The position numbers and the translations under genes were made by a program. A stretch of DNA of 32,000 nt from Haloarcula limicola. GTDB taxonomy: Archaea > Halobacteriota > Halobacteria > Halobacteriales > Haloarculaceae. Location: contig NZ_WRXM01000002.1 in the NCBI RefSeq assembly GCF_010119205.1, positions 22,982 through 54,981 of the forward strand, in the 5' to 3' direction. The notes under the pieces are model-generated. The model was not told the DNA's origin. It was given only the letters and a program-made list of their open reading frames with translations, and ran no database searches. Positions 2,315 to 25,071 of the stretch are shown here, one piece after another. Position 1 is the stretch's first letter. Each line of letters begins with the position of its first letter.

Positions 2315-5300
2315 CTACCGGTCGTCGTAGTCTCGTGCGTCGCAGTCCCAGCGGAAATCGCACTCGTCGCACGTTGCCTTGTCGGGGAGGTCGTCTTCGT
2401 CCCAGTCGTCCAGGTCGTCCCAGTCGTTGTGTTCGCGGACGTGCTCGAGTTCGGTTACCGTGTTCTCGAACCGGGACATCGCCGCTCGGATCTCACTCTC
2501 GGTGAAGTCTAATTCGAGTCGGGTGGCTTCCGGATCTTCCTCGCCGAGGAAGTACAGCACTGCACTGTCTGGGTACTCGTCTTCCTTCTCGGCGTAGAGC
2601 CCTGCGTAGACGAGCAGTTGTTCGCGGTAGTCCTGGAGGTACCCCCCTCCAGAATTCGGTCGCTGGCTCGCCTTGTAGTCGCAGAGCTTCGTGTGGCCTG
2701 CTTCGTCTGCGATCACGTCGGCGACTCCGGTGAGGATGAAGCTGCCAGCGTTACGCCGGAGTTTGCACTCGGTGTTGATGACCTGGGGGTACAGGTCCGG
2801 TCCGATTTGGGCGTTGAACCGCTTGACGTGTTGGAACACAGCGTTGACCGCGTCCTGCCCCATCGGCATGATCCGCTGGTCCCGGAGCGACTCTACGACA
2901 CTATCGAACTCGTCACGCAGTTTGCCCTCGTCGGGGGTTGTACCTTCGGCTACGCCGTCAACATCACCGTTGTAGTAGCGGTGTGCCCAGTCAAGTGTCT
3001 GGTGGACGGCTAGCCCAGCGAACAGCTGGGTCCCGCTCCCGGCGGCGAACTCGTGCTCGGTGTGGTACCCGTACTGTCGCTTGCACCGTCGGAACGAGAG
3101 CACGTCAGCGACGATCGAGTAGGTCCGACGGGTGTCGTCGGTGGAAGGCGGGCCGACCGTAGTTCCGTCGGGGGCGAGTTCGGCTTCCTGGTCCAGCCGC
3201 TGGTCTGCGTCGAACCAGTCGACACCGACTGGACCGCTGGCGTCAGCGCCGAGCGAAGGGAGCACCGTACTCCCGTCGGCCCCCCGGAGGTAGTAGTCAG
3301 TTCCCAGAAGCACAAGGTTGTCCTCTGCGCGCGAGTGCGCGACGTAGAACTGCCGGACTTGGTCCCGCTCGGCACGTGTGGGAACGTCCGTCGGTGGGGT
3401 ACAGTCGGTGTAGTCGCTGAGCAGGTCCGCTACTCGGGGGACCACCTCTCCGTCGTCTGTAACGTCGTAGTTCTTCTCTGCGGTCCGTTCCAAGCTCGCG
3501 AGGAAGACCACCGGAAACTCTAGGCCCTTGGCTTGATGGACCGTCATCACCTGGACGTGCCCGCTCGGGAAGGTGTCGTACTGGTCCTCCGGGTCGTCGA
3601 GACCTTTGCTCTGGAGGTACTGACCGAACGTCCAGTAGAAGTCGCTCAGAAACCGCACCGAGACGGTGTCGTACTCGTCGTGAGATGTGCGGGTGAGCTT
3701 TCGGTTCTCGGTCACGCCCTCCGCGATGCCCTCGAATGCCTCGAGAAGCTGGCTGAGCTTCCCCAGCCGCTTGGCGCGGTTGACGTGGCCGTCGTCTTTC
3801 GTCCACGTCGAGAACGGCTCGAAGGACCTGATCCGGTTGTAGAGGTCGACGGCGGAGACGTCGGCTACGCTGCCAGAGGGAGCACTTCGAATCCGGGCGG
3901 CTGTGACTTCGAGGTAGTTCGCGAGGTCCTTCGCGTCGTGTCGTTCAATCACGTCGTCCAGAGTGGTGAGCCACTCTTGGAAGTCATCCCCGAGCCCACC
4001 GTAGGGAAGCACGTTGTCTTCCGCCCACTGAAGGTCCGGGTCGAAACACACTGCTAGCGCTGCTAACATCGCCTGAACCTCCTCGTGCTGGACGAATCCC
4101 TTGTTCCGCGGGTTGTGTACCGGGATGTCGCGCGCCTCCAATGCGTTGACGCACTCCCCGACGAACGTCGTGTTGTCCCACTGCGGCCAGTATTCACGAG
4201 TACTGTGGGCTAGCAGTGCCACCTGGTTGAGGTCCTGCACGTAGCCTTCAGCGTGAAGTCGTTGGACTTGGTCAGCGAAGGCTGCCGCGGCCTGCGCTTT
4301 GTTGTCCTCCTTCAGGAGGTGGACGCTTGGGTGGTCGACGGCGTCACGTGCCGCGTTTAGTGGCTCCTTGCCCGGTGCACGGGCCCCAGTGACCTGCATC
4401 GTCGGGTAATAGCCGATGTGGCGGTTGACCCACTCGACGATCTCCGGACGGGAACGGTAGTTCCAGCGCAGTTGTTGCGTCTCGATTTCGTCTTGGTCGA
4501 TACCAAGGTAATCGGACAGACGTTCGGGAAACTCAATCAGACAGTCGACGGTCCCACCGCGGAACCGGTAGAGCGCCTGGTCGTCGTCCCCTACCACTAC
4601 TAACGTCGGGACCTGGTCCGGCATCAGCTCGGCGAGTCGGAAGTAGATCGCCTGCTGGAGGGGGTTCACGTCTTGGTACTCGTCAACAGCGATCCGCTGC
4701 AACGGTGGCTCCTCGCGTTCTGAGTCCCCTTGTGCGAACCGCTGGCCAGCCTCTGTGTCGAGAAACGCCAGGAACCGCTCCTGAAGTCGCGCGAAGTCAC
4801 ACCGCGACTCGTCCCGCAGTGTTGCTAGGTAGTCCCGGTACCCCTCGGCTAGCCGCCTGTACTCGAGTCGGTCGGACTCGGCGAGTGCTTCGACGTCGAC
4901 TCGCAGTTGCGAAAGTCGGTTGAACAACCGTTTCGCGGTGGTGGCCGCAGCCCCCTTCGAGCAGGTGCCGTCGTCGTTCATCCGGGGAACGACGTCTCGG
5001 AACGTGGCGACGTCACCGTCGGCGAGCACGTCGACGTACTCGCTGTGGCGGGCGATGAACATCTCCTGGGCGTCCTCGTCCAAGAGGTCGACGTTGCGGT
5101 AGTCGTCGAACCGGTAGTCGCGCATGATCTCGCCCCAAAGCTGGTGGCCAGTGCCCACGTGTAACTCGTCGACGGAGAACACGTCGTCGTAGCCGAGGGC
5201 GGCGAGATCGCGTTCCAGACGCTGCTCGAGGTTCTCGGCGGCCTTCTCAGTGAAGGTGGTGAGGATGATCCCACCGGGCGGGATGCCGTCCACTAGCAAC

Positions 5301-5545
5301 CACTTCAGGACCGTCACCTCGGTCACGGTACTCTTACCTGCGCCCGGTCCTGCCGTCAGGTGCAGTGGCCCTGTTTCGTGCCGGATGGCGGTTTCTTGGT
5401 CGTCGTCGAACGACCAGTTTGGGTCGTCGTTCTGGACCTGTCGCACCGCCCGCATGACCTCAAGGAACTCGTCGAGTTCGAGGTCATCCGGCGACGTTTC
5501 GGGTCCAGGTGTCGGGTGTTCGTCTGTCACGGTTGTGTGCCCCAA
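2315..5545 (-). CDS. UvrD/Rep-family SF1 helicase fused to C-terminal PD-(D/E)XK nuclease with Fe-S-type cysteines
   Basis: Walker A AGPGAGKS; DEYQD motif II; VVVGDDDQALYRFRGG; VMTVHQAKGLEFPVVF; C-terminal SFRRCKRQYGYH, LCDYKAS, QLLVYAGLY, CDECDFRWDCDARD. Confidence 0.93.
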   Translation of the reverse strand: MGHTTVTDEHPTPGPETSPDDLELDEFLEVMRAVRQVQNDDPNWSFDDDQETAIRHETGPLHLTAGPGAGKSTVTEVTVLKWLLVDGIPPGGIILTTFTEKAAENLEQRLERDLAALGYDDVFSVDELHVGTGHQLWGEIMRDYRFDDYRNVDLLDEDAQEMFIARHSEYVDVLADGDVATFRDVVPRMNDDGTCSKGAAATTAKRLFNRLSQLRVDVEALAESDRLEYRRLAEGYRDYLATLRDESRCDFARLQERFLAFLDTEAGQRFAQGDSEREEPPLQRIAVDEYQDVNPLQQAIYFRLAELMPDQVPTLVVVGDDDQALYRFRGGTVDCLIEFPERLSDYLGIDQDEIETQQLRWNYRSRPEIVEWVNRHIGYYPTMQVTGARAPGKEPLNAARDAVDHPSVHLLKEDNKAQAAAAFADQVQRLHAEGYVQDLNQVALLAHSTREYWPQWDNTTFVGECVNALEARDIPVHNPRNKGFVQHEEVQAMLAALAVCFDPDLQWAEDNVLPYGGLGDDFQEWLTTLDDVIERHDAKDLANYLEVTAARIRSAPSGSVADVSAVDLYNRIRSFEPFSTWTKDDGHVNRAKRLGKLSQLLEAFEGIAEGVTENRKLTRTSHDEYDTVSVRFLSDFYWTFGQYLQSKGLDDPEDQYDTFPSGHVQVMTVHQAKGLEFPVVFLASLERTAEKNYDVTDDGEVVPRVADLLSDYTDCTPPTDVPTRAERDQVRQFYVAHSRAEDNLVLLGTDYYLRGADGSTVLPSLGADASGPVGVDWFDADQRLDQEAELAPDGTTVGPPSTDDTRRTYSIVADVLSFRRCKRQYGYHTEHEFAAGSGTQLFAGLAVHQTLDWAHRYYNGDVDGVAEGTTPDEGKLRDEFDSVVESLRDQRIMPMGQDAVNAVFQHVKRFNAQIGPDLYPQVINTECKLRRNAGSFILTGVADVIADEAGHTKLCDYKASQRPNSGGGYLQDYREQLLVYAGLYAEKEDEYPDSAVLYFLGEEDPEATRLELDFTESEIRAAMSRFENTVTELEHVREHNDWDDLDDWDEDDLPDKATCDECDFRWDCDARDYDDR

Positions 5546-6598: not shown

Positions 6599-8950
6599 AT
6601 GAGTGAATCATCGGACCGAGCTGGACTCCCGAAATCAGTTGAGTATCAACCCCTCCCCAATATCTACCGTGCGTTCGCCGCAGGGGCCTCTCCATACGCG
6701 ATAGTATCCGAGACAATTGACAATTCGATCGACTTCGTCCGTCGACAGGCGTTAGATGGAGCTAAGTACCCAGATACGTTAAAAGTAGAAGTCCGATACG
6801 AACCCCCTTCTACTACCGAATCCGATGCGGAAAACTCGGCTGTTGATGATCAGAGTCCCGAGCGATTGATAATTGTTGATAATGCCGGCGGTGTTCCGCC
6901 GAACGAACTGGCCCGATTCTTTCAGTTAGGCCACACGGATGCTCCACCTGAGGGAATTGGGCGCTTCGGTGTCGGAGCGAAACGACTCATCGGTATTGGA
7001 GACCGTATCAAATACGAGTCACATGCGAATGGATACGAAGTTGCTGCGGGTTTCGAAGTGGATGCTCGAGATCTCAAAGCCACCGAAAATAACAAACTCG
7101 CCGACGACGATGTCTACCAATCGGATGTTTATCGAGTTGATGATTTAGAGGAAGGCCATACAAGAATCATCGTTGAAGATCTGAATGAAAACGTCTGGTC
7201 AAACCTGCTTGGACGAGACAGAGATGAGATTGACGAGAGGGCTAGCGATTCTCTCTGGCGACTTGGTGAGACATACGAGCACTTCCTTCGAAACGGAATT
7301 CACATCGCTGCTCCATCAAGTGAAACTGAAGGTTCTATCGAGTTCGAACTCAGTTGGTCTGGTCCTGAACACGGGGAACAAGTAGATGTCCCCAATCCAG
7401 TCCAACTTAGTTGGCTACCGCTCGATGGACTTCATCCGAGACGGTATGAGCGACTTCCCTTCGCGAATACTACCGAAATCGAATTAGAGGACGCTCTTCG
7501 GGCCGACATCACGGTGGCCTTAATGCCCTCGTCAAAGCCCAAAGATGCTGGGCTAACGGTAACGATGAATAACCGGAACGTACTGTTCCGAGACACCGAT
7601 AACGATTTGTTCTCTACTCGGTACCTTGGCAAATTCCGCGAATCACAAGGTCACGGTCGGCTGCATTGCGTCATCGAATTATATGGCCCGGCAGAGGATA
7701 TGCCTTGGTCTGATACGAAGGATGGCCTCGATGGAACTCAAGAGATAACCGATCATCTTCTTAATGTCACAGAAAATGCCCTTAGCGAATATCGACGTCA
7801 GACTTACGAAAATCTCCCAAAATGGATCTTAGCTGCCTACTCCGGCGAGGATATACAGACGTTTGACAACCACATTCGTGACGAGATCTCCGAAACCGTT
7901 GAAACAATCGACAAATCGAATTCAAAAGTCAATAGCCCTCGCTTCAATGAGAAACCCGGAAGTACCGCAACTGGCAAGTACTATCGGTTGTATCCCGAAC
8001 GAGATGGTCTCATCAAGCGCGTTCGGTTACACTCGGAACTCCGAATTCGAGCAGACGATTCAGTAGCGATTAAAGGACTACCTGCTTACCGGCGTTACTT
8101 CGAGACGGAATACGATCACGAGAGCATCACAGAGCTCTCTCCCAAAGAATGCCCTGACCCTGAGGACTTTGAGGTGCCAGTTTTCGCAGATAGTCCGAAC
8201 ACAATCCCGTTGATTGAGGACATCAAGAAACTCGCAGAGACTCACGCCGCCGAAGAGAGAGCAATTACAAATGAGACCGACGGAGTGCCTGCTTGGCTCT
8301 TGCCAAGGTACCAAGAGGAGTTCAAGCAGCACGGTACCACCCTTGAGTCAGCGACCACCATCGGCGAATTCGATTTCGACTCTTGGCGTGCCAAGCACTC
8401 TACATCAGAGGACGTGCGTCGAGGACCAGAGTTCTCTGAACCCGAATCAGAACCGAGCCCTGACCAGCCCGACTCTCCTGATAAACGCCCAACACGTAGT
8501 TCCCCAGCCGACCGGTTAATCGAATCATCAAGTGAAACGACAGGACGTTCATCATCCGGGAACCATGGGGGTAGTTCCAGTACAACTGAGACGTCGAAAG
8601 GTCAATCGTCTGAGGATAGTACGGACCTCTCCAACTTCCAGAGGAGTTCCGTTGTGTCTGACTCCGGGACTGAAGAAGCCAGTATCCCTGAGCGAGAAGT
8701 ACCATCTCCAGATTTTGATTCACAGCAACTTGAAGAACTTCGTAGTGTGTTGGAATTAGACGACGACGCATCCATGGCCACTGTTGTAGACACTGTACGG
8801 GAGCTACAGAGTGAACGTCAGAGGATACAGAATGAACGGAAGCAGCTCATTAACTACCTTGAGCAGCTCAGTGATGTTGTCAATTTTGAAATGATTTTTG
8901 ACGAACCCCCAGATCTTGAAGCGCTGAAAGAAGACAAAAACGAGCCTTGA
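6599..8950 (+). CDS. MORC/MutL/Hsp90-type GHKL ATPase with C-terminal coiled coil
   Basis: Bergerat-fold motifs: IVSETIDNSIDF, LIIVDNAGGVPP, GIGRFGVGAKRLIGIG. Ser/Pro/Glu-rich linker, then predicted coiled coil (LQSERQRIQNERKQLINYLEQLSD). Confidence 0.88.
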   Translation: MSESSDRAGLPKSVEYQPLPNIYRAFAAGASPYAIVSETIDNSIDFVRRQALDGAKYPDTLKVEVRYEPPSTTESDAENSAVDDQSPERLIIVDNAGGVPPNELARFFQLGHTDAPPEGIGRFGVGAKRLIGIGDRIKYESHANGYEVAAGFEVDARDLKATENNKLADDDVYQSDVYRVDDLEEGHTRIIVEDLNENVWSNLLGRDRDEIDERASDSLWRLGETYEHFLRNGIHIAAPSSETEGSIEFELSWSGPEHGEQVDVPNPVQLSWLPLDGLHPRRYERLPFANTTEIELEDALRADITVALMPSSKPKDAGLTVTMNNRNVLFRDTDNDLFSTRYLGKFRESQGHGRLHCVIELYGPAEDMPWSDTKDGLDGTQEITDHLLNVTENALSEYRRQTYENLPKWILAAYSGEDIQTFDNHIRDEISETVETIDKSNSKVNSPRFNEKPGSTATGKYYRLYPERDGLIKRVRLHSELRIRADDSVAIKGLPAYRRYFETEYDHESITELSPKECPDPEDFEVPVFADSPNTIPLIEDIKKLAETHAAEERAITNETDGVPAWLLPRYQEEFKQHGTTLESATTIGEFDFDSWRAKHSTSEDVRRGPEFSEPESEPSPDQPDSPDKRPTRSSPADRLIESSSETTGRSSSGNHGGSSSTTETSKGQSSEDSTDLSNFQRSSVVSDSGTEEASIPEREVPSPDFDSQQLEELRSVLELDDDASMATVVDTVRELQSERQRIQNERKQLINYLEQLSDVVNFEMIFDEPPDLEALKEDKNEP

Positions 8951-10645: not shown

Positions 10646-11806
10646 CTAATCAGATATCATCGTTTCCCCCAGTTCTCGTCCTACTCGAGTCTGTTGACGG
10701 TCCGCCGCTACGTCAAGCAGACGACTGCACAGCGATAGTACCTGCCGAACGTTACCCTGAGAACGCTGATGAACCCATTGTAAGCATTCCTCCTCGAACG
10801 GGGCGATTCCTCCAGTCCCATCTACTCGAGCGGTATCTAAATACGAGGCCACCAAGTCGGTGAGGTGTTCGTCTGTCAACGGACGCAACGCTACCTCCTG
10901 ACCGATCCGTTCAGAGAAGGCATGGTACTCACTCATCACGTCTTGCCACACCTCTGGTGCACAGGCAAACAGCAGACAGAGGCCGTGACTATTCTGGTCC
11001 ATCAGATGACGGATGCTATTTAGCGTCGCCTGTTCGTCCTTCGGCGACAGCCGGGCAATACTTTCGAACTCGTCAACAAAGACGAACACACCGGTATACC
11101 CCAGCTCAAGGAGGATATTCTTTAGAGCAGTGAACGCCCGAACGCTCGTCGTGTCGTCGTCGAGGGCGCTATGAATCTCCATTTCCTTCCGTTGCTCGTA
11201 GCGGATTCCTTCGGCGGTCAGCCACTGCCAAGCGTAGAGGTTAGTATCTTCGTACACCATGTGAACGATCGCTCGTGAGAAGTCCGCAAACTGGGTAACT
11301 GTATTAAGCCGTTGGATAGCTGTTGGAATAATCTCCGAGAGCAGCAGTTCGCCCTCGTCGATTAACTCACACATCTCATCGGGCCTGGATGGATGCCAGT
11401 CAGTAATATCTGAGGTAATATGAGCGAGATACTCGTACGCGAGTTGCTGCACTCGATCAAACCCTAGATCGTAGAGGAACTCGTGGTAGATATCACGGAA
11501 TCCCTCCCCGGGTTGGGCGACGTAACCGACGAGTACGTCGTCGCGATCACGGACCAGTGACCGTGTGTACTTGAGCGTATGTGACTTCCCGTTACCGTAT
11601 TTGGCTGTGACGACAAGGTGTTTCGACTTCCCGGTACTGAGCATCGTAGAGACTGTGTCGCTAATTCGCTTCGCTGCGTGTTCCTGTCCGCAGTATATCT
11701 CCGGGTCGTTTTTCGGAACAGGACTGTAGGGGAAAGGATTCTCCTCCAAGTTGAACTGGGAGTAATCGCGCTGTTCGTCGGTAATGGTGAAACCGTTGTC
11801 AGTCAT
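10646..11806 (-). CDS. AAA/P-loop ATPase
   Basis: VVTAKYGNGKSHTLKY Walker A; GVFVFVDEFESI Walker B; LLFACAPEVW sensor-like. Start at 11806 (MTDNGF) supported by the ATGACTGA overlap with the upstream gene. Confidence 0.85.
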   Translation of the reverse strand: MTDNGFTITDEQRDYSQFNLEENPFPYSPVPKNDPEIYCGQEHAAKRISDTVSTMLSTGKSKHLVVTAKYGNGKSHTLKYTRSLVRDRDDVLVGYVAQPGEGFRDIYHEFLYDLGFDRVQQLAYEYLAHITSDITDWHPSRPDEMCELIDEGELLLSEIIPTAIQRLNTVTQFADFSRAIVHMVYEDTNLYAWQWLTAEGIRYEQRKEMEIHSALDDDTTSVRAFTALKNILLELGYTGVFVFVDEFESIARLSPKDEQATLNSIRHLMDQNSHGLCLLFACAPEVWQDVMSEYHAFSERIGQEVALRPLTDEHLTDLVASYLDTARVDGTGGIAPFEEECLQWVHQRSQGNVRQVLSLCSRLLDVAADRQQTRVGRELGETMISD

Positions 11807-12698
11807 CGTTGTTTGGATCGTATTCGAGGTCACGGTCGTGGACCGCGAGATAGTAGTATCGCTTGCCGAACTGTTCGACACCGCGCATCACTTTGTCGGT
11901 CGACTGATTAGTAGAAACGAGACTACCGCTATCGGCGATCGTCATGGATTTGATGCCGAGTTTCGCATCTTTGGCTACCGTATCCACGGGGGCGCCCGAC
12001 AGCTCTACTCGTCCGACATTCTGCTCTGCAAGACGAACCAGAGCTTTGTCGAAGGGATCGCGTGGACACGTAAACTGCTCACAGTAGTGCTCGCGCAGCT
12101 TCGGGATTGAAAGATAGCGTTGTCTTAGTGACACTCCCCCAGTCTCCTCCAAATCGTCGAATACTGACAACAGATGGTCGGTGAAGCTGGACGTGACGCT
12201 GTCGCGTTCAACTGGATAGTAAGTACCGGTGAACGCGTTGCGCTGGATACGTCCGAGACGTTCGCCCCAGTCACCGAGAACCTCAACGCTCGTCTGATTA
12301 TATGTCCGTCCGGTGCTTTGCTCTCGTGTCTGTAGATCTCTAAGGATTGTTTCTAGATCGGTTGGTGCAGTCTCCTTGAGTGACTGAAGGAGTGCCCTGT
12401 AGTGGGGGCTCTGTGCCTCCAAGATATTGTTGACTCGGTCCCAGTTCTCATCCCGAACTGCCTTGACGAGATCGACGCCTATCTGGGTCGCCAGAAACCA
12501 CGTCTCGGAATCCTCAGGATTATGTTCGTCAATCAGGCCGACACGCAGCGCTTCAAGAATTGTCTCGCGTGCTCGTCGGTGGCTGACGTTCAATGCAGCC
12601 TCGATTTCAGCAGTCGTTTGGCTTTCGCCTTTACAGGCATGGGTCACCTCAATAAGGCGAGCAAGAGTAACCGGTCGCACCGTGGGACGCTCGCTCAT
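11799..12698 (-). CDS. Winged-helix-containing partner protein of the AAA ATPase
   Basis: SQTTAEIEAALNVSHRRARETILEALRVGLIDE wHTH; overlaps both neighbours by a few nt. Confidence 0.8.
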   Translation of the reverse strand: MSERPTVRPVTLARLIEVTHACKGESQTTAEIEAALNVSHRRARETILEALRVGLIDEHNPEDSETWFLATQIGVDLVKAVRDENWDRVNNILEAQSPHYRALLQSLKETAPTDLETILRDLQTREQSTGRTYNQTSVEVLGDWGERLGRIQRNAFTGTYYPVERDSVTSSFTDHLLSVFDDLEETGGVSLRQRYLSIPKLREHYCEQFTCPRDPFDKALVRLAEQNVGRVELSGAPVDTVAKDAKLGIKSMTIADSGSLVSTNQSTDKVMRGVEQFGKRYYYLAVHDRDLEYDPNNDD

Positions 12699-13762
12699 GT
12701 GAACCTCCGAACTTGCTGTTTCGCCATTTGATATGCTCGCTGAGTCACCTCATTGTGCTCGAACCGAAGGTCGAGATACGCCTCGATATCGTAATCGCCT
12801 GCGACCATGTACCGGAACCGACGAAGTTCAGTCACCAGCGACCAGAGGTTGTGTTGCGTCAGCAGATTCCGGTCCTTGCGTATGGTCGACAGCGGTCGTG
12901 AGCAGCAGACTGGGCACGAACATGGTAGATGCTCTAATTCCTCGATGCTATGGAGTTCCGTACCGCCGAATCCTGGAACAAGGTAGTTTCGATTGCCTGC
13001 GCTCCGGATGAATGCCGATGAGTCGAAACTATCGACGCCTAGATACAGCAACAGCGGCTGATAGACAATGCCACCTAACCCGTAAACGTGGAGATGCTTG
13101 TCCGTAACTCGTCGAGCAGACAGTATTAGTTTGGTTACTTTCTTGTAATCTGTCCTAATCGGCACTAAGCTACCGAGAGCATATCCGTCGAAGTCCCCTT
13201 TACGTTCGAGATATCGGAGTGTGTTCCGGATTGTTTTGGGATCGTGCCCATGAACACTGGCGAAAAGAAGTGCCTCTCCTTCGTGAGCATCGCTTGCTTG
13301 GAGTGCATATGTTGTACTCTCCTCAATTCGCTGTTGGTTCTCTACTGCCCGATTTTCGGGTGAGAGAGGTCGGTCAAGCGTCCCATAAATGTCTGCATCA
13401 AGTTGCCGTTGTGTTTCCAGTACTTGCTTTGGTGTAGTGTCGACTTCTTTGGAACGATAATCGAACCCACCGCTGTCGGCGTACAGAATAGTCTTACTAG
13501 GAACGCCCATCTCCTCACGTATCGTAGCCCCCTCGAGAAGACGATCCCACTGTGGACCACGCTGGCGGATTGCTCTGGTGTTTACCATTGCAGTCCGGAG
13601 GTCAGGTATACTGTCGGCGTACTCTGGGGTATTATCGCTCGACCGTTTTCCGATATTGCGGACTGGAAAGAGCACTGGTGTCTCCAGCGGCCCGTGCGGT
13701 GTCTTGAGCGTGCGGTGTCGGTACAGCATGGCGGCGCGCTTCGATAAGCTGGCGAGGCTCAT
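12695..13762 (-). CDS. tRNA-guanine transglycosylase-fold protein lacking PUA/C-terminal domains (candidate nucleic-acid guanine transglycosylase)
   Basis: ILYADSGGFDYRSKEV; YALGSLVPI; HVYGLGG; LGVDSFDSSAFIRSAGNRNYLVPG; zinc-site-like CSCPVCCS...QHNLWSLVTELRRFR. Internal start MSLASL at 13762. Confidence 0.85.
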   Translation of the reverse strand: MSLASLSKRAAMLYRHRTLKTPHGPLETPVLFPVRNIGKRSSDNTPEYADSIPDLRTAMVNTRAIRQRGPQWDRLLEGATIREEMGVPSKTILYADSGGFDYRSKEVDTTPKQVLETQRQLDADIYGTLDRPLSPENRAVENQQRIEESTTYALQASDAHEGEALLFASVHGHDPKTIRNTLRYLERKGDFDGYALGSLVPIRTDYKKVTKLILSARRVTDKHLHVYGLGGIVYQPLLLYLGVDSFDSSAFIRSAGNRNYLVPGFGGTELHSIEELEHLPCSCPVCCSRPLSTIRKDRNLLTQHNLWSLVTELRRFRYMVAGDYDIEAYLDLRFEHNEVTQRAYQMAKQQVRRFT

Positions 13763-13766
13763 AAAA

Positions 13767-13784
13767 GGTTGGTTCAGACCAACC
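13767..13784. promoter_or_regulatory. Perfect inverted repeat GGTTGGT-TCAG-ACCAACC, candidate operator or 5' hairpin
   Basis: 7-bp perfect arms with 4-nt spacer, 5 bp upstream of the TGT-like start codon, between two divergent genes. Confidence 0.55.
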
Positions 13785-13838
13785 CAAACTGCAGATAATC
13801 CGGAGTATGTATAATGACCCACCAATCAGTACGGGGTG

Positions 13839-14117
13839 ATGTATAACGAGGTTCGGTCAGTGGTTGAATCAAAATGGTCGATAAAGATCCTATCGTCGCT
13901 GTCAGAGGAGAGTCCACAGAATTTCTCGACGGTTCAGGAGCAGTTCGATACCTCGAACGATGTCATCACTGATAGACTGAGACTCCTTGCCGAGTACGAT
14001 CTCATTGATCGGAGAGAGCATACTCGTAGAGATGTTCGGTATAGCATCACTAAGCGTGGTGAACGATTCCTTGATGAACTGAGGGATCTCAATTCATTAC
14101 TCAGGAAGGGACTCTGA
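13839..14117 (+). CDS. HxlR/PadR-like winged-helix regulator
   Basis: SKWSIKILSSLSEESPQNFSTVQEQF...VITDRLRLLAEYDLIDRREHTRRDVRYSITKRGERFLDEL. Confidence 0.75.
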   Translation: MYNEVRSVVESKWSIKILSSLSEESPQNFSTVQEQFDTSNDVITDRLRLLAEYDLIDRREHTRRDVRYSITKRGERFLDELRDLNSLLRKGL

Positions 14118-14134: not shown

Positions 14135-14842
14135 CTACTGGTAGTCGCCCAACCCACTCTGTGTTGTGGGTTCAGTCGTTAGATACTGAGCCAACTTCTC
14201 CAGGCACTCTACGCGTTTCCCCTCACTACGATGTGCAGCGAAGTTCTGAAGATAGCGGCCCTTGAGGGCGACGACGATTGTGCCATGTTCCTTCGCTTCT
14301 GCTAGCCGAGCAGAAATCGATATGACGTTATCGCGATCCACGGCGAGACTCTCTTGATTGAATACGACACCCGTCGTCTCGGTCGGAAGTGCATTGAGAA
14401 CTTCTTCAAGGTCACACGCGCGGTAGTAGTCGCTACCGAGGGCCAGAACGACGAGGTCGTATGGTGGGTCCGTCTGTACGGCGTCACGGACGTTCTGCGG
14501 AATTCCTAACTTGATCGCACGTTCGTCAATCTCGGTCGCAGTCATATCAGAGAACGTAATGTCGTACGGCGGTAACTCGGTGTCTTCGTCAACGAGGCCA
14601 AACCCTGCACTAATGTAGACTCGATTAACCGTATCTCCGCTCTCTCGGAGATGATCAACGGCGAAGTCAATGTACTGCTGCTGGCGTCCGGTGTATAATT
14701 GTCTTGCCGGAATACCCTGAACCTTATCTCTCTCAAGTAAGGCCTCGCGATCGTATTGGTCGATTTCAGCGGCATCGAACTCGGATACGTTCTCTGGGTT
14801 ATCTTTAGAGCCAGAACACTGGCCGACGATGAGTACACGCAT
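14135..14842 (-). CDS. DUF6884-like protein coupled to DpdA
   Basis: VLIVGQCSGSKDNP...IPARQLYTGRQQQYID...RVYISAGFGLVDEDTELPPYDITFSD; starts 2 nt after the stop of the upstream gene. Confidence 0.78.
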   Translation of the reverse strand: MRVLIVGQCSGSKDNPENVSEFDAAEIDQYDREALLERDKVQGIPARQLYTGRQQQYIDFAVDHLRESGDTVNRVYISAGFGLVDEDTELPPYDITFSDMTATEIDERAIKLGIPQNVRDAVQTDPPYDLVVLALGSDYYRACDLEEVLNALPTETTGVVFNQESLAVDRDNVISISARLAEAKEHGTIVVALKGRYLQNFAAHRSEGKRVECLEKLAQYLTTEPTTQSGLGDYQ

Positions 14843-14844
14843 GG

Positions 14845-17064
14845 TTAGTAGTCGGTCAGTCCGGATTGCATGAGATGCTGTGGGAGGAATTCGTCTTCGT
14901 ACCCGAGGCGTTCGAGAACGCCGTCTCGAATGCTTGCGGGGTTGGTGTGTTCATGTACCGTGCAGTTGACGTCCTCAAGCCGACTGCGAGTTGCTTCGTC
15001 CAGCTCTAAGTGCCGAGCGTCGACGAAAATATCCTGATACCGCTCACCTTCGGTGACAAGGACGTCGGCTAGGCCGTTGGAGTCGAACGATGCTGTCTCT
15101 GGACGGTTAGCCCACCACTCGTGCAATCCGGTTGCCGACACAGCCCCGATTTCGGCGACAGGGAGGTCGTGAACACTACCCCAGAACGTCGGTCGATCGT
15201 TACGGAGATATCTCTCCATAGTTCCCTGTCCCATCACAGACGCAGATGGACGCGTCACGACGAGAATTTTCGGGAGATCACCCTCGAATTGGTCATAGAA
15301 TCGCCGAGTATTGTGGAATCCACGGCGCCGATTACGGTTATTCCCTCGAAAGATTGCGACTTCGATTCCGTTCCGTGTACAGATTGGACAGTCACACCGT
15401 TTCCAAGGCTTGGCGTTGAGAAGGTCACGGTAATCGTCCAGAAGGTTTGCATCGCTGATCGGGTCCCAGGTCGCGTACGCCTCGACGAGGGGCCACAACG
15501 CGTTGATAGTGCCTGGCGTCTCTGACTCTCGTTCCACAACGACATCGAGCAACGTTGGTGTCCAATCGGTGAATACTTTCTCTGCAACTGCAACCAGGTC
15601 ATCGTACTCGGTGAACGGGATCGGGTTCTCGGGATCATCGTCACGGAGAAGTTTGATCAACTTCGAACTCAGCGGGTCACCGAAACTCGCCCGGAACGCA
15701 CGCCCGTGGTCGTAGCCCGAACGGAATGCCTCTTCAGTTTCTTTGATGTACGCCACGTCATACCGCTCGTCGTGCCGGTGCTCGAGAAGGTACTCCGTGA
15801 TCTCACTGAGAGCTTGTGTCGCTCGGTTGTGCCATGTCTGAAGTGCATCTGCAATCGGCTCGTTATTGTCGAACGCCCGGAGGGCATACAACATCTCCTG
15901 CCCTCGAAGAGCCTTCTCGATACTCGTTTGGAGGTCGTCTCGATAGCTCGGGTACCGGACGCGAATCGCGTCATAGCGCTCGTCGCTGTCGAGATGGTAA
16001 TTCTGTCCCCCTGTCCACGCTGCACGGAGCATGCTTGCGCTGTCGAAACTCGTCATACCACTACGACCGATGGTCTCGAAAGCACCGCTCTTGGCGAATC
16101 CAAAGACGTGGGTGTCGATGCGAGTCTCGTGCGTTCGTTCGAAGCTCTTGATTTCGTTCCCAACGGCACTCACGATATCTTTGACTGCACTCTCCGGACT
16201 TCCAGCGACACCACCGATACCAAGATACTGATACCCAAGATCGAGAACTTCCTTGGTCGCGTTTACGTACGATTCACAGTCCCAACCCTGCACAGCGGAC
16301 ATCAGTCGGAACGAGTAATCCCCTTCCTCGTACCGTTTGCGCATATCGCGAGCATTGCGGAGCGTGAGATCGTACCGATACTGCATATCGTCGGCCCGAT
16401 AGACTGCCCGAGGGTCGCTACGGAGATGTGCAATGATCTCCTCGACATCCCCCTCGAAATCAGTTCGTGTGAATGGCTCGATAGTCGAGACGTGATATAT
16501 GGAGGGTTCTTCTTCCGCGACATACGAAGGCCATCTGCGGCTAGAACTGCCATCGCCGTTGGGCCACGTATCGATCATGACGTCGAGTTCCTCGGTCACC
16601 TCCTCGGGGATGTCACCTTTGCTAAAGTCCCCGCTGAAAGCACGCTCATTGAGATAGAGGCGAGCAGTATGGCCCGCCCCAAGGACGAGGTGGTCAATCG
16701 TCACACCTGTAGTCACGCCGAGCTGCTCGTAGAACTCAAGCATCTCGCCGTTGTCGTACGGTGGGAAGGGGAGAGATTTGTAGCCCCACGCACCACAATC
16801 GCTGATCGTCGGGAGCCATCTAGGCAGGTCCAGTTTGGATGCGTCGTAAATTCCGTTCTCGGTCAATCGCTGTGCCTTAGTCGAACTCTCCTCTGCCTGT
16901 TCTCTCGAGATGAGGACGCCGTCGATCGGAGTGTTCTTCCTGTCGAATAAGTCCCAAATATACGCTAGATCACGCTCATCGGTCCCGAGCGTCGAGTGTT
17001 CGTCGTGGAGAAAATCGTAGTTCGCGTCAACCCGATCATCCCACTCGGGAACGTAGAACCGCAC
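14845..17064 (-). CDS. dpdA: DpdA-like DNA guanine transglycosylase
   Basis: TGT-fold signatures in a 739-aa DpdA-sized protein: PTISDCGAWGYKSLPFPPY, LGYQYLGIGGVAGS, THVFGFAKSG, GMTSFDSASMLRAAWTGGQNY, and CDCPICTRNGIEVAIFRGNNRNRRRGFHNTRRFYDQF. Confidence 0.82.
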   Translation of the reverse strand: MRFYVPEWDDRVDANYDFLHDEHSTLGTDERDLAYIWDLFDRKNTPIDGVLISREQAEESSTKAQRLTENGIYDASKLDLPRWLPTISDCGAWGYKSLPFPPYDNGEMLEFYEQLGVTTGVTIDHLVLGAGHTARLYLNERAFSGDFSKGDIPEEVTEELDVMIDTWPNGDGSSSRRWPSYVAEEEPSIYHVSTIEPFTRTDFEGDVEEIIAHLRSDPRAVYRADDMQYRYDLTLRNARDMRKRYEEGDYSFRLMSAVQGWDCESYVNATKEVLDLGYQYLGIGGVAGSPESAVKDIVSAVGNEIKSFERTHETRIDTHVFGFAKSGAFETIGRSGMTSFDSASMLRAAWTGGQNYHLDSDERYDAIRVRYPSYRDDLQTSIEKALRGQEMLYALRAFDNNEPIADALQTWHNRATQALSEITEYLLEHRHDERYDVAYIKETEEAFRSGYDHGRAFRASFGDPLSSKLIKLLRDDDPENPIPFTEYDDLVAVAEKVFTDWTPTLLDVVVERESETPGTINALWPLVEAYATWDPISDANLLDDYRDLLNAKPWKRCDCPICTRNGIEVAIFRGNNRNRRRGFHNTRRFYDQFEGDLPKILVVTRPSASVMGQGTMERYLRNDRPTFWGSVHDLPVAEIGAVSATGLHEWWANRPETASFDSNGLADVLVTEGERYQDIFVDARHLELDEATRSRLEDVNCTVHEHTNPASIRDGVLERLGYEDEFLPQHLMQSGLTDY

Positions 17065-17229: not shown

Positions 17230-17520
17230 CTAATTAGTGGAACCTGCGTGCTTGATTTTGCCGTTTCTGGTGAAGATGATTACTACACCTAGTCTAGCAC
17301 TGAGGACGCCGACTGGCCGGTAGAGGATGTTTCGCGGGTCGAAAACGTAGATGAAGCCCGTGTGATCCTCTATCCAGATGCCAAGACCTTCATCTGTGAA
17401 ATATCCGCGGATGGGGAGGAACACAATCAGGGTCCAGTTCGTTGCTACTGTGAGTGAGAGGAAGTCTATAGGTGGTCCATCTTCACTGAGTACCGTATGT
17501 TTATATGCTATCTGAACCAT
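17230..17520 (-). CDS. Hypothetical protein
   Basis: 96-aa ORF divergent from queD; no recognisable motif and may be spurious. Confidence 0.35.
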   Translation of the reverse strand: MVQIAYKHTVLSEDGPPIDFLSLTVATNWTLIVFLPIRGYFTDEGLGIWIEDHTGFIYVFDPRNILYRPVGVLSARLGVVIIFTRNGKIKHAGSTN

Positions 17521-17528
17521 CGGTGAGT

Positions 17529-18003
17529 ATGCCCGAGATAGCTTCAGGAGAATACTCCAGTAATATCTCCCTTGACGAGGCGGGCGAGCGGACCCTCCAC
17601 GTCGGTCGTGAGTGTCCTAACCGAATCAGTTCGGGGCACCGCATCCGCTACCATGACGGGAAGTGCTCCCGCCCACACGGGCACAATTACGAAATTTCAG
17701 TGACGGTCACCGGCGAAATCAGCGAGGAGGGGTGGATCGTCGACAAGGGCGACGTTACGGCCATCATCAGCGAGTGGGACCACCGTTTTTTACTCGGAAA
17801 AAGGTGACCTGCTCATTGAGGCATTTGAACGGTCGGGAGATGGTGACGCTGTTGTGGTCCTCAATCAGCCACCAACAGCAGAGGTGATGGCTGCGGTCCT
17901 CGAGCAACGTATGATAGAGGCGTTCCCCGAGAACGTCTCTGAGGTCTCTGTGGAAGTAGCCGAGACAAGAAGCGGGAACTCGGAGCCAACCGTTAATACG
18001 TAG
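17529..18003 (+). pseudogene. queD: QueD-like 6-carboxy-tetrahydropterin synthase with a single-base frameshift
   Basis: Frame 1: HVGRECPNRISSGHRIRYHDGKCSRPHGHNYEISVTVTGEISEEGWIVDKGDVTAIISEWDHRFLLGK, stop at 17807. The other frame from 17803 continues GDLLIEAFERSGDGDAVVVLNQPPTAEVMAAVLEQRMIEAFPENVSEVSVEVAETRSGNSEPTVNT to the TAG at 18001. Removing one A from 17798-17802 joins the halves. Confidence 0.85.
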
Positions 18004-18700: not shown

Positions 18701-19477
18701 CTATCCCATATTTCGATAGTGACCTGCTGCTCTGGCCACCTCGGCATAGGAAGCCTGACCCATCCCAAAAAACGGCGTATGGATAAGGTGGACTGAGTCG
18801 TCATCAACTGTGAGTTTGTAGAGTTCGTAAGAGGTCGAGCGCTCGGTCGAGACCAGCGTCTCAACCTTCTCACTGGGATAATGGTTCAAAAGGACCTCTG
18901 GTGTCGGGTTGGTGTTCGTGTTCCCGTAGGAAACGATGCACCTTACACCGTTGCTCTCTTCGATAGCATCCGTCAGGAGATGTTCTCGTCCTGGAATCAC
19001 CTCTCTGTGGTATGCGGCCTCAGACTTCCAGATGTGGTCGTAGGGTTCAATCGTATCCAGGCTCTTCGGGAGTGGAAAGAACTCTCCGGTGAGGCTATCC
19101 CCGCCTCGCCGACCAAGCCGTTTGTTCTCAAATACGTATTCCTTAGCTCTTCTCCCGAGCGTCGCTGACGACTCCTCTAATAGTGATGGATCTTCTAGTG
19201 TCATCATGAACACCGCTTGGAATCTCCACGTTGACGGTCCAGAGAACTTCTCCAAGGCAAATCCATGCTTTTCCTCCCATACCTGTTTAAAGTCCTCTGT
19301 CAGTCCGAACTCCCGCCTTAACCTCAAGAAGTCCTCTACGTCGTCTACGTTGTTGAACCCCTCCCATCGATAGAGGCTTTCTTCGATTCCAATGAACCAA
19401 TACGGGCTGTCGAGACTACCATATCCGAGCCAGTTGTAGAGACAATCCCGAACTAAGGGTTCTGGGAGTTCAGACAT
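18701..19477 (-). CDS. Hypothetical protein with weak resemblance to uracil-DNA-glycosylase-fold proteins
   Basis: SPYWFIGIEES near the N-terminus and VHLIHTPFFGMGQ near the C-terminus. Start at 19477 (MSELPEP) supported by the ATGTCTGA overlap. Confidence 0.7.
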   Translation of the reverse strand: MSELPEPLVRDCLYNWLGYGSLDSPYWFIGIEESLYRWEGFNNVDDVEDFLRLRREFGLTEDFKQVWEEKHGFALEKFSGPSTWRFQAVFMMTLEDPSLLEESSATLGRRAKEYVFENKRLGRRGGDSLTGEFFPLPKSLDTIEPYDHIWKSEAAYHREVIPGREHLLTDAIEESNGVRCIVSYGNTNTNPTPEVLLNHYPSEKVETLVSTERSTSYELYKLTVDDDSVHLIHTPFFGMGQASYAEVARAAGHYRNMG

Positions 19478-20225
19478 GGGCATCTGGACAAACGTCGTTG
19501 TATTCGCACGCTCGGCACTTCGCCGCTTTCTCCGTTGGAATCGGCTCCCGCTCATTTCGCCAATATCCGAGAGCCCAGTTGAGGTCCTCCAGATACTCTA
19601 CCTTTGAGAACTCAGAAAGATGCAGGATGGCCGTCGGAGACTCAGTCAGTTCGTGGTCACCGGTCTCCCACCCCTCGTAACTTGCCATCACTAACTGCTG
19701 GAGTTCCTTTCCTGTCCCCGGTTCTAGTGATTGCTCGTGGCTAAGGACGGCAATCCTCAGATTGTCGGTGTGGAAGCCGAGACTGTCAAGAATGAAACCG
19801 TACAGCCATGCCTGGATTCGCTGGTTCTTGTAGAGGTAGTCAGGCCTCGACGTCGTCTTTCGTTCAAAGATAAGCTGCGGGCTCTGATTCTCAAAGAGAA
19901 CGGCGTCCGGAATACCACCGATGAGGAATTCCGCTGCCTCGCCAATGAAGGGACTCTCGACGATAACCTGGCGCTCACCTCTCTCTAAAGCCCGCCAAAA
20001 TTCCTCGTCAGAGACTTCTTCAGAGTCCTCGGCTGCTTTCTCGTGGGTTTCGCTCCCACGGGTCTTTGCAGGTGTTTCAATGTCCCCGTGCTCCCGAGTG
20101 AGCGCGACCTGCTTCTCGCAATAGAATTGCCCCGCAATTTTGCTCGGCGCCAGCGACGACTCCTCTGACTCAGATAGCTGCTTGACGAGCGAAGTATGCT
20201 TCTCTCGGACCCTCTCAATGCTCAT
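19470..20225 (-). CDS. Cas4/RecB-like PD-(D/E)XK nuclease with Fe-S cysteines
   Basis: SKIAGQFYCEKQVAL; GGIPDAV...LIFERKTTS; RIQAWLYGFIL; KAAKCRACEYNDVCPDAHV. Confidence 0.85.
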   Translation of the reverse strand: MSIERVREKHTSLVKQLSESEESSLAPSKIAGQFYCEKQVALTREHGDIETPAKTRGSETHEKAAEDSEEVSDEEFWRALERGERQVIVESPFIGEAAEFLIGGIPDAVLFENQSPQLIFERKTTSRPDYLYKNQRIQAWLYGFILDSLGFHTDNLRIAVLSHEQSLEPGTGKELQQLVMASYEGWETGDHELTESPTAILHLSEFSKVEYLEDLNWALGYWRNEREPIPTEKAAKCRACEYNDVCPDAHV

Positions 20226-24701: not shown

Positions 24702-25071
24702 TGTCCTCACCCGATGAATCGTTGGATCGGTCGAACTTCTCCAACTCACCCTCGATCAGTTCACGGTGGAACCCGACTACCTCGTCAACGGTCTCCTCGT
24801 CGAGCTGCTGGTTTTCCAGCGTGTCGAGCGCTTCGTTCGCCATCGCCATCTTCGCTTGTAGACTACTGAATTCGTCGAGAATGTCGTAGAGCATACTCTC
24901 GACCTCGTCCGGAACACCACTTTGTCCTTTGTCGCGTGATATTTGCTCGGAAACAGACTTCCGCACGAGATCTGAGACGTTCTTGTATTTACGCCCCGCT
25001 TCCTCATGTTCGATGAAGTTCTCCCAGTCGGTTTTTTGCCCGTCGTCAACGTGGATATGCATACGAGCCAT
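24694..25071 (-). CDS. Small protein co-translated with the integrase, possible DNA-binding or recombination accessory factor
   Basis: MARMHIHVDDGQKTDWENFIEHEEAGRKYKNVSDLVRKSVSEQI..., C-terminal part of ORF 24694..25458; 8-nt overlap with the integrase. Confidence 0.65.
   Translation of the reverse strand: MARMHIHVDDGQKTDWENFIEHEEAGRKYKNVSDLVRKSVSEQISRDKGQSGVPDEVESMLYDILDEFSSLQAKMAMANEALDTLENQQLDEETVDEVVGFHRELIEGELEKFDRSNDSSGEDSA

Follow-up and report, generated by a model that had tools for sequence, protein, structure and literature searches.

Which reaction is catalysed by a short TGT-fold protein (sTGT) that is encoded in the same island as a long DpdA in Haloarcula limicola? The gene lies in a stretch of 32,000 nucleotides of contig NZ_WRXM01000002.1 (positions 22,982 to 54,981), referred to below as the window, and all coordinates are window positions. 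An earlier note on this DNA had described a short TGT-fold reading frame at 12695-13762 that carried the motifs ADSGGF and GVDSFDSSAF and a zinc-site-like CxCxxC...H, and that lacked the C-terminal domains of the archaeal tRNA enzyme. Both observations were borne out, as was the stop of the gene, whereas its start had been placed 33 nt too far upstream. The maximal open reading frame spans 12695..13825 (-). The ATG at 13762 would give a protein of 355 aa, whereas the MLYR start common to about 120 homologues fixes the start at the ATG at 13729. The gene is thus located at 12695..13729 (-) and encodes a protein of 344 aa, in a family with lengths of 340-356 aa. Residue numbers refer to the 344-aa form; those of the 355-aa form run 11 higher.

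sTGT consists of a catalytic barrel and a zinc subdomain only. It was recognised by the Pfam TGT model PF01702 (E=1.2e-29, 103.9 bits, cutoff 26.3) and passed the superfamily model TIGR00449 (84.3 bits, cutoff 47.6). Structural modelling, which had been suggested as a check, yielded an AF2 model (pLDDT 80.5, pTM 0.84) whose best Foldseek matches were the archaeal enzyme ArcTGT (1iq8/1j2b, TMq 0.82-0.83), with a probability of 1.00 against both ArcTGT and bacterial TGT. D85 (in ADSGGF), D119 and D236 (in GVDSFDSSAF, together with D233) align to D95, D130 and D249 of P. horikoshii ArcTGT (1iq8), and C270, C272, C275 and H293 (CSCPVC...H) align to its zinc ligands. D233 and all residues thus aligned are invariant in the family, down to identities of 29-39%; the loss of catalytic Asp residues that the note had named as a possible refutation was not seen. 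Haloarchaeal copies are 70-85% identical across genera, a higher conservation than that of the neighbouring DpdA (54-58%) or DpdC-like protein (44-48%). These alignments show a complete active site under strong constraint. The C-terminus coincides with the last helix of the ArcTGT catalytic domain: positions 11-332 of the 441 positions of the TgtA profile are covered, and the TGT domain was the sole domain matched in Pfam, TgtA profile and Foldseek comparisons, the C1, C2 and PUA domains being absent. sTGT has a pI of 8.2, compared with values of 4.4-5.9 for the proteins encoded around it in the island and of 4.05-4.55 for housekeeping proteins of the host that the window encodes; a basic pI is not uniform in the family (4.96 in the Halobacterium copy).

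The gene is part of a three-gene operon (the triad) that the earlier note had missed. Its second gene (11799..12698 (-)), whose start overlaps the sTGT stop codon as ATGA, encodes a tandem winged-helix protein of 299 aa. This putative subunit for DNA recognition is always found in one operon with sTGT. The protein had no Pfam, NCBIfam, PADLOC or PHROG match. With an AF2 model of it (pLDDT 81), Foldseek retrieved RPC62, C-terminal fragments of SelB and MarR-type winged helices. In all loci examined, even at 33% sTGT identity, the gene that immediately follows sTGT encodes a homologue of it. The third gene (10646..11806 (-); likely start ATG 11806, reading frame extending to 11881) encodes a BrxD-like AAA+ ATPase with the P-loop GNGKS and the Walker B motif FVFVDE (Pfam BrxC_BrxD 1.3e-14, PADLOC BrxD 2e-12). 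Its NCBIfam BrxD score of 46 bits lies under the cutoff of 350, so the protein is BrxD-related and not an equivalog. Haloarchaeal copies share 71-80% identity with one another and 40% with those of methanogens, and the gene always follows the winged-helix gene. The order sTGT, tandem winged-helix protein (~300 aa) and BrxD-like ATPase, with translational coupling, was found in every locus examined.

Hundreds of database entries name sTGT-family proteins tRNA-guanine transglycosylase, a widespread annotation that is corrected here. sTGT scored 137.7 bits with the TgtA model TIGR00432, under its equivalog cutoff of 350, and family members reached 131-206 bits, compared with 493-592 bits for four canonical ArcTGT representatives. 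In neighbour-joining (NJ) trees, canonical ArcTGT was split from all short TGT and TGT+DUF5591 proteins in 100/100 bootstraps, with sTGT on the non-canonical side, and hence outside the canonical clade in which its placement would have contradicted the earlier note. A canonical or split ArcTGT was rejected on the HMM cutoff, the bootstraps, the island and plasmid distribution, and the nature of the downstream protein, which consists of tandem winged helices and not of C1, C2 and PUA domains. Because the monophyly of the triad-associated sTGT family is only weakly supported (31-41% NJ bootstraps), the case for a single family rests on synteny. A divergent DpdA was also ruled out, since the NCBIfam DpdA model gave 26.9 bits (cutoff 200) and sTGT lies nearer TgtA; the PADLOC DpdA profile matched over 118 residues (1.7e-6). 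An ArcS-like base modifier was rejected because sTGT lacks DUF5591 and retains the full barrel with both catalytic Asp residues. The ArcS model scored 44 bits (cutoff 440), with a match that starts from ArcS position 83 at sTGT residue 166, roughly half-way along the barrel, and covers only its second half. A viral origin was also rejected, and sTGT was not assigned to the phage DpdA families (DpdA1-4): it had no PHROG match at E<=0.001, tblastn against 50,697 phage records gave no halovirus match and only partial matches of 25-26% identity in Sulfolobus STSV1/2 and Xanthomonas jumbo phages, and five IMG/VR loci contained TGT relatives of only 24-29% identity. The three of these loci that were examined (L090-L092) lack homologues of the winged-helix partner. 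sTGT is a member of an uncharacterised family in Halobacteriota that is neither canonical ArcTGT nor DpdA.

The second TGT-fold enzyme of the island is a long DpdA of 739 aa (14845..17064 (-)); this DNA-guanine transglycosylase carries two insertions and is extended at its C-terminus. It reached 278 bits with the NCBIfam DpdA model (cutoff 200), in three stretches, and 2.8e-73 with PADLOC DpdA; outside the haloarchaea, its best relatives come from cyanobacteria, where the genes bear the annotation dpdA. The full DpdA proposed to lie beside sTGT is thus real, but it is not adjacent, since two genes are located in between. One of them encodes an HxlR-type winged-helix regulator (13836..14117 (+), divergent from sTGT; Pfam HxlR 9e-8), which occupies the same position in loci L003-L006 and follows the DpdA-DUF6884 gene in L012. 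The other encodes the DpdC-like protein (DUF6884; 14135..14842 (-)), a putative preQ0-to-ADG nitrile hydratase for DNA (PADLOC DpdC 8.6e-10; Pfam DUF6884 2.3e-6, under its cutoff). The corresponding domain and DpdA form a single fusion protein in Haloferax, Halobacterium, L009, L011, L012 and L100, and that of L012 also matches the YaaA/DUF328 family. On the far side of DpdA lies a frameshifted gene for QueD (6-carboxytetrahydropterin synthase; 17505..17970 (+)), with an NCBIfam QueD match of 6.9e-17 over the first 100 aa. The alignment with Haloferax QueD runs through two frames, with the switch near 17790, where a T6/A5 run is located. The 32-kb window contains no QueC, QueE or FolE, and the broken QueD is its only remnant of the preQ0 pathway. 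A UvrD-family helicase fused to a PD-(D/E)xK nuclease (2315..5545 (-); Pfam UvrD-helicase 2.7e-37, PDDEXK_1 6.5e-14) is a candidate restriction effector of the island, and we infer its membership in the system. The same architecture adjoins the triad in L009 and L099; the GC content of the gene is 62-64%, compared with 50% for the island. A ParB/DndB-like DpdB was absent from the window and from the profile-scanned loci L001, L002, L011 and L100.

Among the haloarchaeal loci examined, 17 of 17 carry the triad beside DpdA and the DpdC-like protein (nine on plasmids), usually near the preQ0 synthesis genes QueC, FolE, QueE and QueD. Triad and DpdA also occur together in three more distant loci (L009, L011 and L100), the first of which has a DndB-like gene in addition. 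The pairing of two TGT-fold enzymes in one island, to which the earlier note had drawn attention, is therefore conserved. The retention of DpdA beside the triad in all 17 haloarchaeal loci counts against the triad as a complete writer. In L012, DpdA-DUF6884 is present without the winged-helix protein or the ATPase, and a related short TGT adjoins a stand-alone DUF5591 protein. Three methanogen loci, from Methanoregula, Methanosarcina and Methanofollis, contain the triad without DpdA within 10 kb, next to YprA-like, UvrD-PD-(D/E)xK and DNA2-like genes. The Methanoregula triad has QueC and QueD as its immediate flanking genes, which suggests that it consumes a product of the preQ0 pathway; within 10 kb of the other two methanogen triads, preQ0 genes are absent. 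Overall, the distribution of sTGT is sporadic, on plasmids and islands. The note had offered several explanations for the presence of two such enzymes. The methanogen triads argue against obligatory sequential chemistry, as well as against a DpdA/sTGT heterodimer, and favour separate specificity, with sTGT as a second, self-sufficient writer. A pair of modifying and erasing enzymes is made less likely by the preQ0 genes that flank the Methanoregula triad.

The nearest characterised relative of sTGT is ArcTGT/TgtA (1iq8; E 2e-21, ~23% identity, TMq 0.82). Common to both are the (beta/alpha)8 barrel, three active-site Asp residues, an aromatic sandwich around the base and the Cys3-His zinc subdomain. 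The two differ in their signatures, which read DSGG, H160, G-S and GxGG in sTGT and DSG[STA], Q, G-G and GxGH in ArcTGT, so that H160 replaces Q169. ArcTGT is, moreover, a housekeeping gene product with C1, C2 and PUA domains, whereas sTGT lacks these domains and belongs to a defence-island operon. The DSGG/H/GS signature is shared with TGT+DUF5591 proteins of 600-660 aa; unlike these and ArcS, sTGT contains neither DUF5591 nor PUA. A His at the base-reading position is also found in Salmonella DpdA (H181). Like the triad, the DpdA/DpdB/DpdC system of Salmonella Montevideo combines a PUA-less TGT fold with a DNA-binding ATPase, and both are linked to preQ0 synthesis and to helicase/nuclease restriction genes. 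ATP hydrolysis by DpdB is required for preQ0 insertion, and bacterial DpdA is inactive without the ATPase (PMC10164549). The triad appears, by analogy, to follow the same logic. The partners are different, however: bacterial DpdA is paired with the ParB-fold protein DpdB, and sTGT with a tandem winged-helix protein and a BrxD-like AAA+ ATPase. In addition to sTGT, the island holds a genuine DpdA, and its DpdC-like gene is attached to that DpdA.

The triad was also compared with two further systems, BRC and the recently named BRIGADE. In BREX-related capture (BRC) systems, a TGT homologue has been proposed as a DNA self-marker together with a BREX-family NTPase that replaces DpdB (PMC12839542), an arrangement like that of the triad. 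The BRC core consists of HerA/FtsK, PglZ, DUF6079, DUF4007 and GNAT, none of which is in the conserved triad core, and the winged-helix partner and the operon structure differ; a BRC system was therefore ruled out as the identity of the triad. BRIGADE, a system of halophilic archaea, comprises a 7-deazaguanine cluster, large helicases of the DEAD/YprA-like type, a Csa3-type regulator and nucleases (PLD or PD-(D/E)xK) (bioRxiv 10.1101/2025.09.15.676423). Haloarchaeal triad loci, both plasmid and chromosomal, fit this published description, and the triad/DpdA region corresponds to the BRIGADE 7-deazaguanine module. The terms DpdA, TGT and second transglycosylase do not occur in the main text of that preprint. 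In the 32 kb of the window, a DEAD/MZB (YprA-type) helicase is absent and QueD is frameshifted, but DpdA, the DpdC-like protein, the triad and the UvrD-PD-(D/E)xK fusion are present. The triad, in contrast to the description of BRIGADE, also extends beyond haloarchaea to methanogens.

sTGT probably introduces 7-deazaguanine into DNA in a way that has yet to be described. We consider the chances to be evenly balanced that the triad is a three-protein DNA-guanine transglycosylase module analogous to DpdA/DpdB, composed of a catalytic TGT, a DNA finder and an ATPase. The role of the tandem winged-helix protein would be to locate the DNA target or keep it in place, and the ATPase would supply an ATP-dependent step, as DpdB does for bacterial DpdA. 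sTGT would then exchange genomic guanine for preQ0 or a close derivative by the conserved double displacement. In this reaction, D236 would be the nucleophile and become covalently linked to the deoxyribose, D85 would serve as general acid/base, and the Watson-Crick edge would be read by D119 and H160. The triad would thereby provide self-marking, one half of a restriction-like defence system. Methanogens would have no other writer; in haloarchaea, including the window, its position beside DpdA and the DpdC-like protein would make for two 7-deazaguanine writers that are independent of each other and probably differ in target or product.

Other roles for the triad were weighed against this module. 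It may serve DpdA as an accessory or specificity factor, with the ATPase and the winged-helix protein in place of DpdB and sTGT as a second subunit that positions the DNA (cf. QTRT2/QTRT1). Such a role would suit the dimeric action of TGT enzymes, in eukaryotes as a heterodimer of two paralogues (PMC10164549), and also the dependence of bacterial DpdA on its ATPase. Since DpdA accompanies the triad in all 17 haloarchaeal loci as well as in L009, L011 and L100, and no DpdB was detected in the window or the four scanned loci, the triad ATPase and winged-helix protein could serve this DpdA instead. We nevertheless regard an accessory role as unlikely: the catalytic residues of sTGT are all invariant, whereas non-catalytic paralogues usually lose them, three methanogen genomes have the triad without nearby DpdA, L009 holds the triad together with a DndB-like gene, and the DpdA-DUF6884 protein of L012 occurs without either partner.

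Alternatively, sTGT could act on the restriction side and probe DNA for guanine or foreign 7-deazaguanine; by removing a viral mark, becoming covalently trapped or leaving abasic sites, it would flag the DNA for helicase-nucleases. The TGT mechanism does involve a covalent enzyme-nucleic acid intermediate (PMC10164549), glycosylases are known to be deployed in defence against phages with 7-deazaguanine DNA (bioRxiv 10.1101/2025.10.29.685425), and dPreQ1 is present in the DNA of halovirus HVTV-1 (PMC6884629). The triads of Methanosarcina and Methanofollis, near helicase-nuclease genes and without preQ0 genes, would also agree with it. Such a role is nonetheless improbable, given that QueC and QueD flank the DpdA-less Methanoregula triad, that the guanine/deazaguanine-binding residues of sTGT are those of an exchange enzyme, and that an eraser would undo the marks of the DpdA always present in haloarchaea. 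Slightly more doubtful still is a tRNA or other RNA transglycosylase on a mobile island, that is, a PUA-less ArcTGT paralogue that inserts preQ0 into host or viral tRNA at G15 or elsewhere. ArcTGT is the closest characterised relative by both sequence and fold, and the databases assign the tRNA name. The PUA domain is reportedly dispensable for ArcTGT activity, so the loss of the C-terminal domains alone does not exclude a tRNA substrate. However, sTGT lies far under the TgtA equivalog cutoff and outside the canonical clade, its distribution is sporadic, it has fixed winged-helix and BREX-type ATPase partners in defence-gene neighbourhoods, and the host archaea already own an enzyme of the canonical ArcTGT type (P0312-like, 493 bits).

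A DNA-modifying triad is thus the preferred reading. In its wider form, to which we give a little less than an even chance, the triad is a previously unrecognised inserter of 7-deazaguanine into DNA that came from the ArcTGT side and is independent of DpdA/DpdB. It would be the sole self-marking module in methanogen defence systems of the YprA/UvrD type and a second writer in haloarchaea, giving two marks or motifs. Because plasmids carry the system in haloarchaeal hosts that are open to genetic manipulation, such as Haloferax, the question is directly testable. If the reading is true, it would identify the unexamined modification half of BRIGADE-type archaeal defence and be the first modification system of its kind to be described in the DNA of cellular archaea, and deazaguanine-modified genomes would be predicted in haloarchaea and methanogens. 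So far, DNA 7-deazaguanine has been linked to a single enzyme lineage, represented in bacteria by DpdA together with DpdB and in phages by variants of DpdA. A further lineage nearer the archaeal tRNA enzyme, with DNA-binding and ATPase partners of its own, would mean that DNA transglycosylation arose more than once.

The short TGT-fold gene (12695-13729, minus strand), located between the divergently oriented HxlR regulator gene (13836-14117, plus strand) and a gene for a 299-aa protein (11799-12698, minus strand), is a real open reading frame, as claimed in the earlier note. The start assumed there (13762) is an in-frame ATG but lies 33 nt upstream of the MLYR start at 13729 that is used by essentially every homologue, giving a protein of 344 aa (hereafter sTGT). 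An NCBI entry from Halomicroarcula limicola, the source of the window, matches it at 100% identity. The previously recognized ADSGGF, GVDSFDSS and zinc-site motifs are present. Together with TLDRP, they align to the archaeosine tRNA-guanine transglycosylase (ArcTGT) of P. horikoshii, with ADSGGF, TLDRP and GVDSFDSS corresponding to D95, D130 and D249, respectively, and the zinc ligands to C279/C281/C284/H307; the catalytic Asp residues are thus kept. The Pfam TGT model matches the protein at 1.2e-29, and its AlphaFold2 model (pLDDT 80.5, pTM 0.84) fits the ArcTGT catalytic domain at a TMq of 0.82-0.83; the fit to bacterial TGT is somewhat poorer. Since sTGT ends where the catalytic domain ends, the tRNA-binding C1, C2 and PUA domains are absent, in line with the original reading. 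The window copy has a pI of 8.2, whereas its neighbours in the island have values of 4.4-5.9 and the housekeeping proteins of the host encoded in the window 4.05-4.55; this gives a further hint of nucleic-acid binding, although other haloarchaeal copies are less basic.

sTGT is neither an ArcTGT nor a DpdA. Assignment to ArcTGT was rejected at 137.7 bits against the NCBIfam TgtA equivalog model (cutoff 350), which gave 493-592 bits for four canonical ArcTGT representatives, and assignment to DpdA at 26.9 bits (cutoff 200); only the superfamily model was passed among the NCBIfam models scored. Another three proteins of this short family reached 131-206 bits with TgtA and, in 3/3 cases, less than 35 bits with DpdA. 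When 1.8 billion cluster representatives were searched exhaustively with phmmer, 22 matches were better than 1e-30; fragments aside, these were short proteins of ~290-380 aa, followed by ArcTGT-sized proteins at 28-32% identity. A neighbour-joining tree built from 137 representatives separated a clade of canonical ArcTGTs (446-714 aa) from a second clade of short TGTs and TGT+DUF5591 proteins, in which sTGT was placed. This split was recovered in 100/100 bootstraps and puts sTGT outside the canonical archaeosine enzymes. Its side of the tree carries DSGG, a base-reading His (H160), G-S and GxGG, where ArcTGT has DSG[S/T/A], Gln, G-G and GxGH. A His at the base-reading position is also found in Salmonella DpdA (H181; PMC10164549). 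Among the compared TGT proteins, P0260-P0386 make up a large, varied group of short TGTs (330-420 aa) and TGT+DUF5591 fusions (600-660 aa) with the common signature DSGG/His/G-S/GxGG, cleanly apart from canonical ArcTGT; all of them retain the zinc site and the catalytic aspartates.

At the junction of sTGT and the 299-aa gene, the stop codon of the former and the start codon of the latter overlap in an ATGA; the stop of the 299-aa gene in turn overlaps the likely start of a gene for a BrxD-like AAA+ ATPase (10646-11806, minus strand) with intact P-loop and Walker B motifs. The 299-aa protein has no match in Pfam, NCBIfam, PADLOC or PHROG; its model (pLDDT 81) is a chain of winged-helix domains, with RPC62, a SelB C-terminal fragment and MarR-type regulators as the best structural matches. 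The order sTGT, winged-helix protein, ATPase (the triad) was observed in every related locus examined, comprising eight haloarchaeal loci (sTGT identity 70-77%), nine haloarchaeal plasmids and the divergent loci L007, L009, L011, L098, L099 and L100 (37-44%). On four short contigs with sTGT proteins of 33-40% identity, the next gene encodes a winged-helix homologue (E 3e-80 to 4e-6). Within haloarchaea, sTGT (70-77% identity) and the ATPase (71-80%) are far better conserved than the winged-helix protein (53-62%), DpdA (54-58%) and the DpdC-like protein (44-48%), a pattern that would fit the winged-helix protein as a variable specificity subunit.

The full DpdA reported beside sTGT proved to be a 739-aa protein (14845-17064, minus strand; NCBIfam DpdA 278 bits, cutoff 200; PADLOC 2.8e-73), accompanied by a DpdC-like DUF6884 protein (14135-14842, minus strand). 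The triad, long DpdA and DpdC-like protein occur together in 8/8 chromosomal or metagenomic haloarchaeal loci, and exactly the same nine PLSDB plasmids were matched by sTGT, the winged-helix protein and long DpdA. Haloferax and Halobacterium encode DpdA and the DpdC-like domain as one fusion protein (964-968 aa), whereas the window has them as two genes. Because the pairing is constant in these haloarchaeal loci and recurs at far greater divergence in L009, L011 and L100, each of which combines the triad with a DpdA-DUF6884 fusion of 557-578 aa, the two-TGT arrangement is conserved, not accidental. The haloarchaeal DpdA exceeds its bacterial counterpart by ~330 aa, has a C-terminal extension and aligns to the model in three stretches that lie apart from one another; the DpdA-DUF6884 fusions of L009, L011, L012 and L100 are compact (557-578 aa). 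Locus L012 (4014-8719) encodes, in this order, a related short TGT (32% identity), a 111-aa protein, a stand-alone DUF5591 (ArcS-type domain) protein, a Vut_1/YhhQ-type transporter, DpdA-DUF6884, HxlR and JAB, with the winged-helix protein and ATPase absent from this interval. It may represent another kind of two-TGT cassette for DNA modification, whose product is perhaps an archaeosine-like base in DNA.

Three methanogen loci, from Methanoregula (L007), Methanosarcina sp. Mfa9 (L098) and Methanofollis formosanus (L099), carry the triad with no DpdA or DUF6884 gene in the 10 kb to either side. QueC and QueD flank the Methanoregula triad, with a type IV restriction enzyme and HerA nearby, and next to the other two lie genes for DEAD plus MZB (YprA-type) helicases, a UvrD-PD-(D/E)xK fusion, a DNA2-like protein and a large AAA ATPase. 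Divergent from sTGT, a small gene for a product of 87-89 aa (L007 9656-9910, L098 9637-9906, L099 9666-9929, all minus strand), shows 36-45% identity among the three loci (45% for L098 versus L099); it occupies the slot of the window HxlR regulator, with no detectable similarity to HxlR.

The target lies in an acquired island, since GC content is ~50% from about 6 kb to 25 kb, versus 64-72% in the right flank, and a tyrosine integrase gene (23505-24749, minus strand) marks the right boundary next to the host gene for the replication factor C large subunit (25129-26643, plus strand). The window contains no tRNA gene. The full arrangement is found on a Salinigranum marinum plasmid (QueC-FolE-QueE-QueD, DpdA, DpdC-like protein, sTGT, winged-helix protein, 'BREX system ATP-binding', HNH, Csa3 and a very large DEAD helicase). 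The window copy of the module is reduced, with QueC, QueE, FolE and a YprA-type helicase absent from the window. A frameshift near 17790, in a homopolymer run (T6/A5), interrupts its QueD gene (17505-17970, plus strand), the Haloferax QueD aligning across two frames; given this frameshift and the lack of QueC, QueE and FolE in the window, either the island's own preQ0 pathway has decayed or a sequencing error accounts for the frameshift. Judging by what is established about archaeosine synthesis in archaea, the host archaeosine pathway could supply preQ0.

A UvrD helicase-PD-(D/E)xK nuclease fusion (2315-5545, minus strand) and a GHKL ATPase (HATPase_c_3; 6599-8950, plus strand) recur beside the triad in other loci. 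UvrD helicase and PD-(D/E)xK nuclease, as fused or adjacent genes, lie near it in three unrelated loci (the window, L009 9570-13048 and L099 1-2078) and may be the restriction effector; the GC content of the window gene (62-64%) is unlike that of the island. A GHKL-type ATPase is also found in the metagenomic locus L100 (7633-9159; 44% identity locus), upstream of the sTGT gene, whereas in the window it lies beyond the ATPase end of the triad and ends in a long C-terminal region that is acidic, rich in Ser and Glu and of low complexity. A Cas4/Exo5-like PD-(D/E)xK nuclease gene (19470-20225, minus strand), with no CRISPR context seen around it, overlaps that of a 284-aa protein of unassigned family (18701-19555, minus strand) in the same island.

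Bacterial DpdA requires the DNA-binding ATPase DpdB and ATP for preQ0 insertion into DNA (PMC10164549). The triad follows the same logic, combining a complete TGT active site with a P-loop ATPase and a nucleic-acid binder made of several winged helices, although its partners are unrelated to DpdB. Because of this logic, the link to preQ0 genes even without DpdA and a position in helicase-nuclease defence loci where one would expect a self-marking module, the favoured reading, with roughly an even chance of being correct, is that the triad is an independent, ATP-assisted DNA-guanine transglycosylase writing preQ0 or a derivative. The analysis shows the fold, the conserved active site, the exclusion of sTGT from known families, the operon structure and the co-occurrence; that DNA is the substrate, which base is written, what the partners do and that the module serves defence are what we infer from this context. 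The window would then hold two writers, namely DpdA with the DpdC-like protein (probably producing dADG) and the triad. Alternatively, the triad could substitute for DpdB in haloarchaea, whose DpdA lacks it, with sTGT as a QTRT2-like partner, as strict triad-DpdA co-occurrence in this group would suggest; however, the catalytic residues of sTGT are invariant, and the methanogen loci have no DpdA within 10 kb of the triad.

Another possible role of sTGT is in restriction, where it would erase or covalently trap foreign DNA. Some haloviruses carry dPreQ1, and glycosylase defences against deazaguanine phages exist, but such an activity would conflict with the marks of the co-resident DpdA and fits poorly with QueC and QueD flanking a triad. 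A mobile tRNA transglycosylase could likewise be envisaged, the whole support for which consists of the resemblance to ArcTGT and database names.

The TGT superfamily class and deazaguanine self-marking in defence islands are already known, whereas the sTGT family and its partners, as well as its independence from DpdA/DpdB, seem not to have been described in the searchable literature. Figures aside, the main text and supplements of the preprint on the haloarchaeal BRIGADE defence systems (bioRxiv 10.1101/2025.09.15.676423) do not mention DpdA, TGT or transglycosylase, and neither the pairing of two transglycosylases nor the triad appears to be analysed there. The question posed by sTGT is of specialist interest and directly testable in Haloferax.
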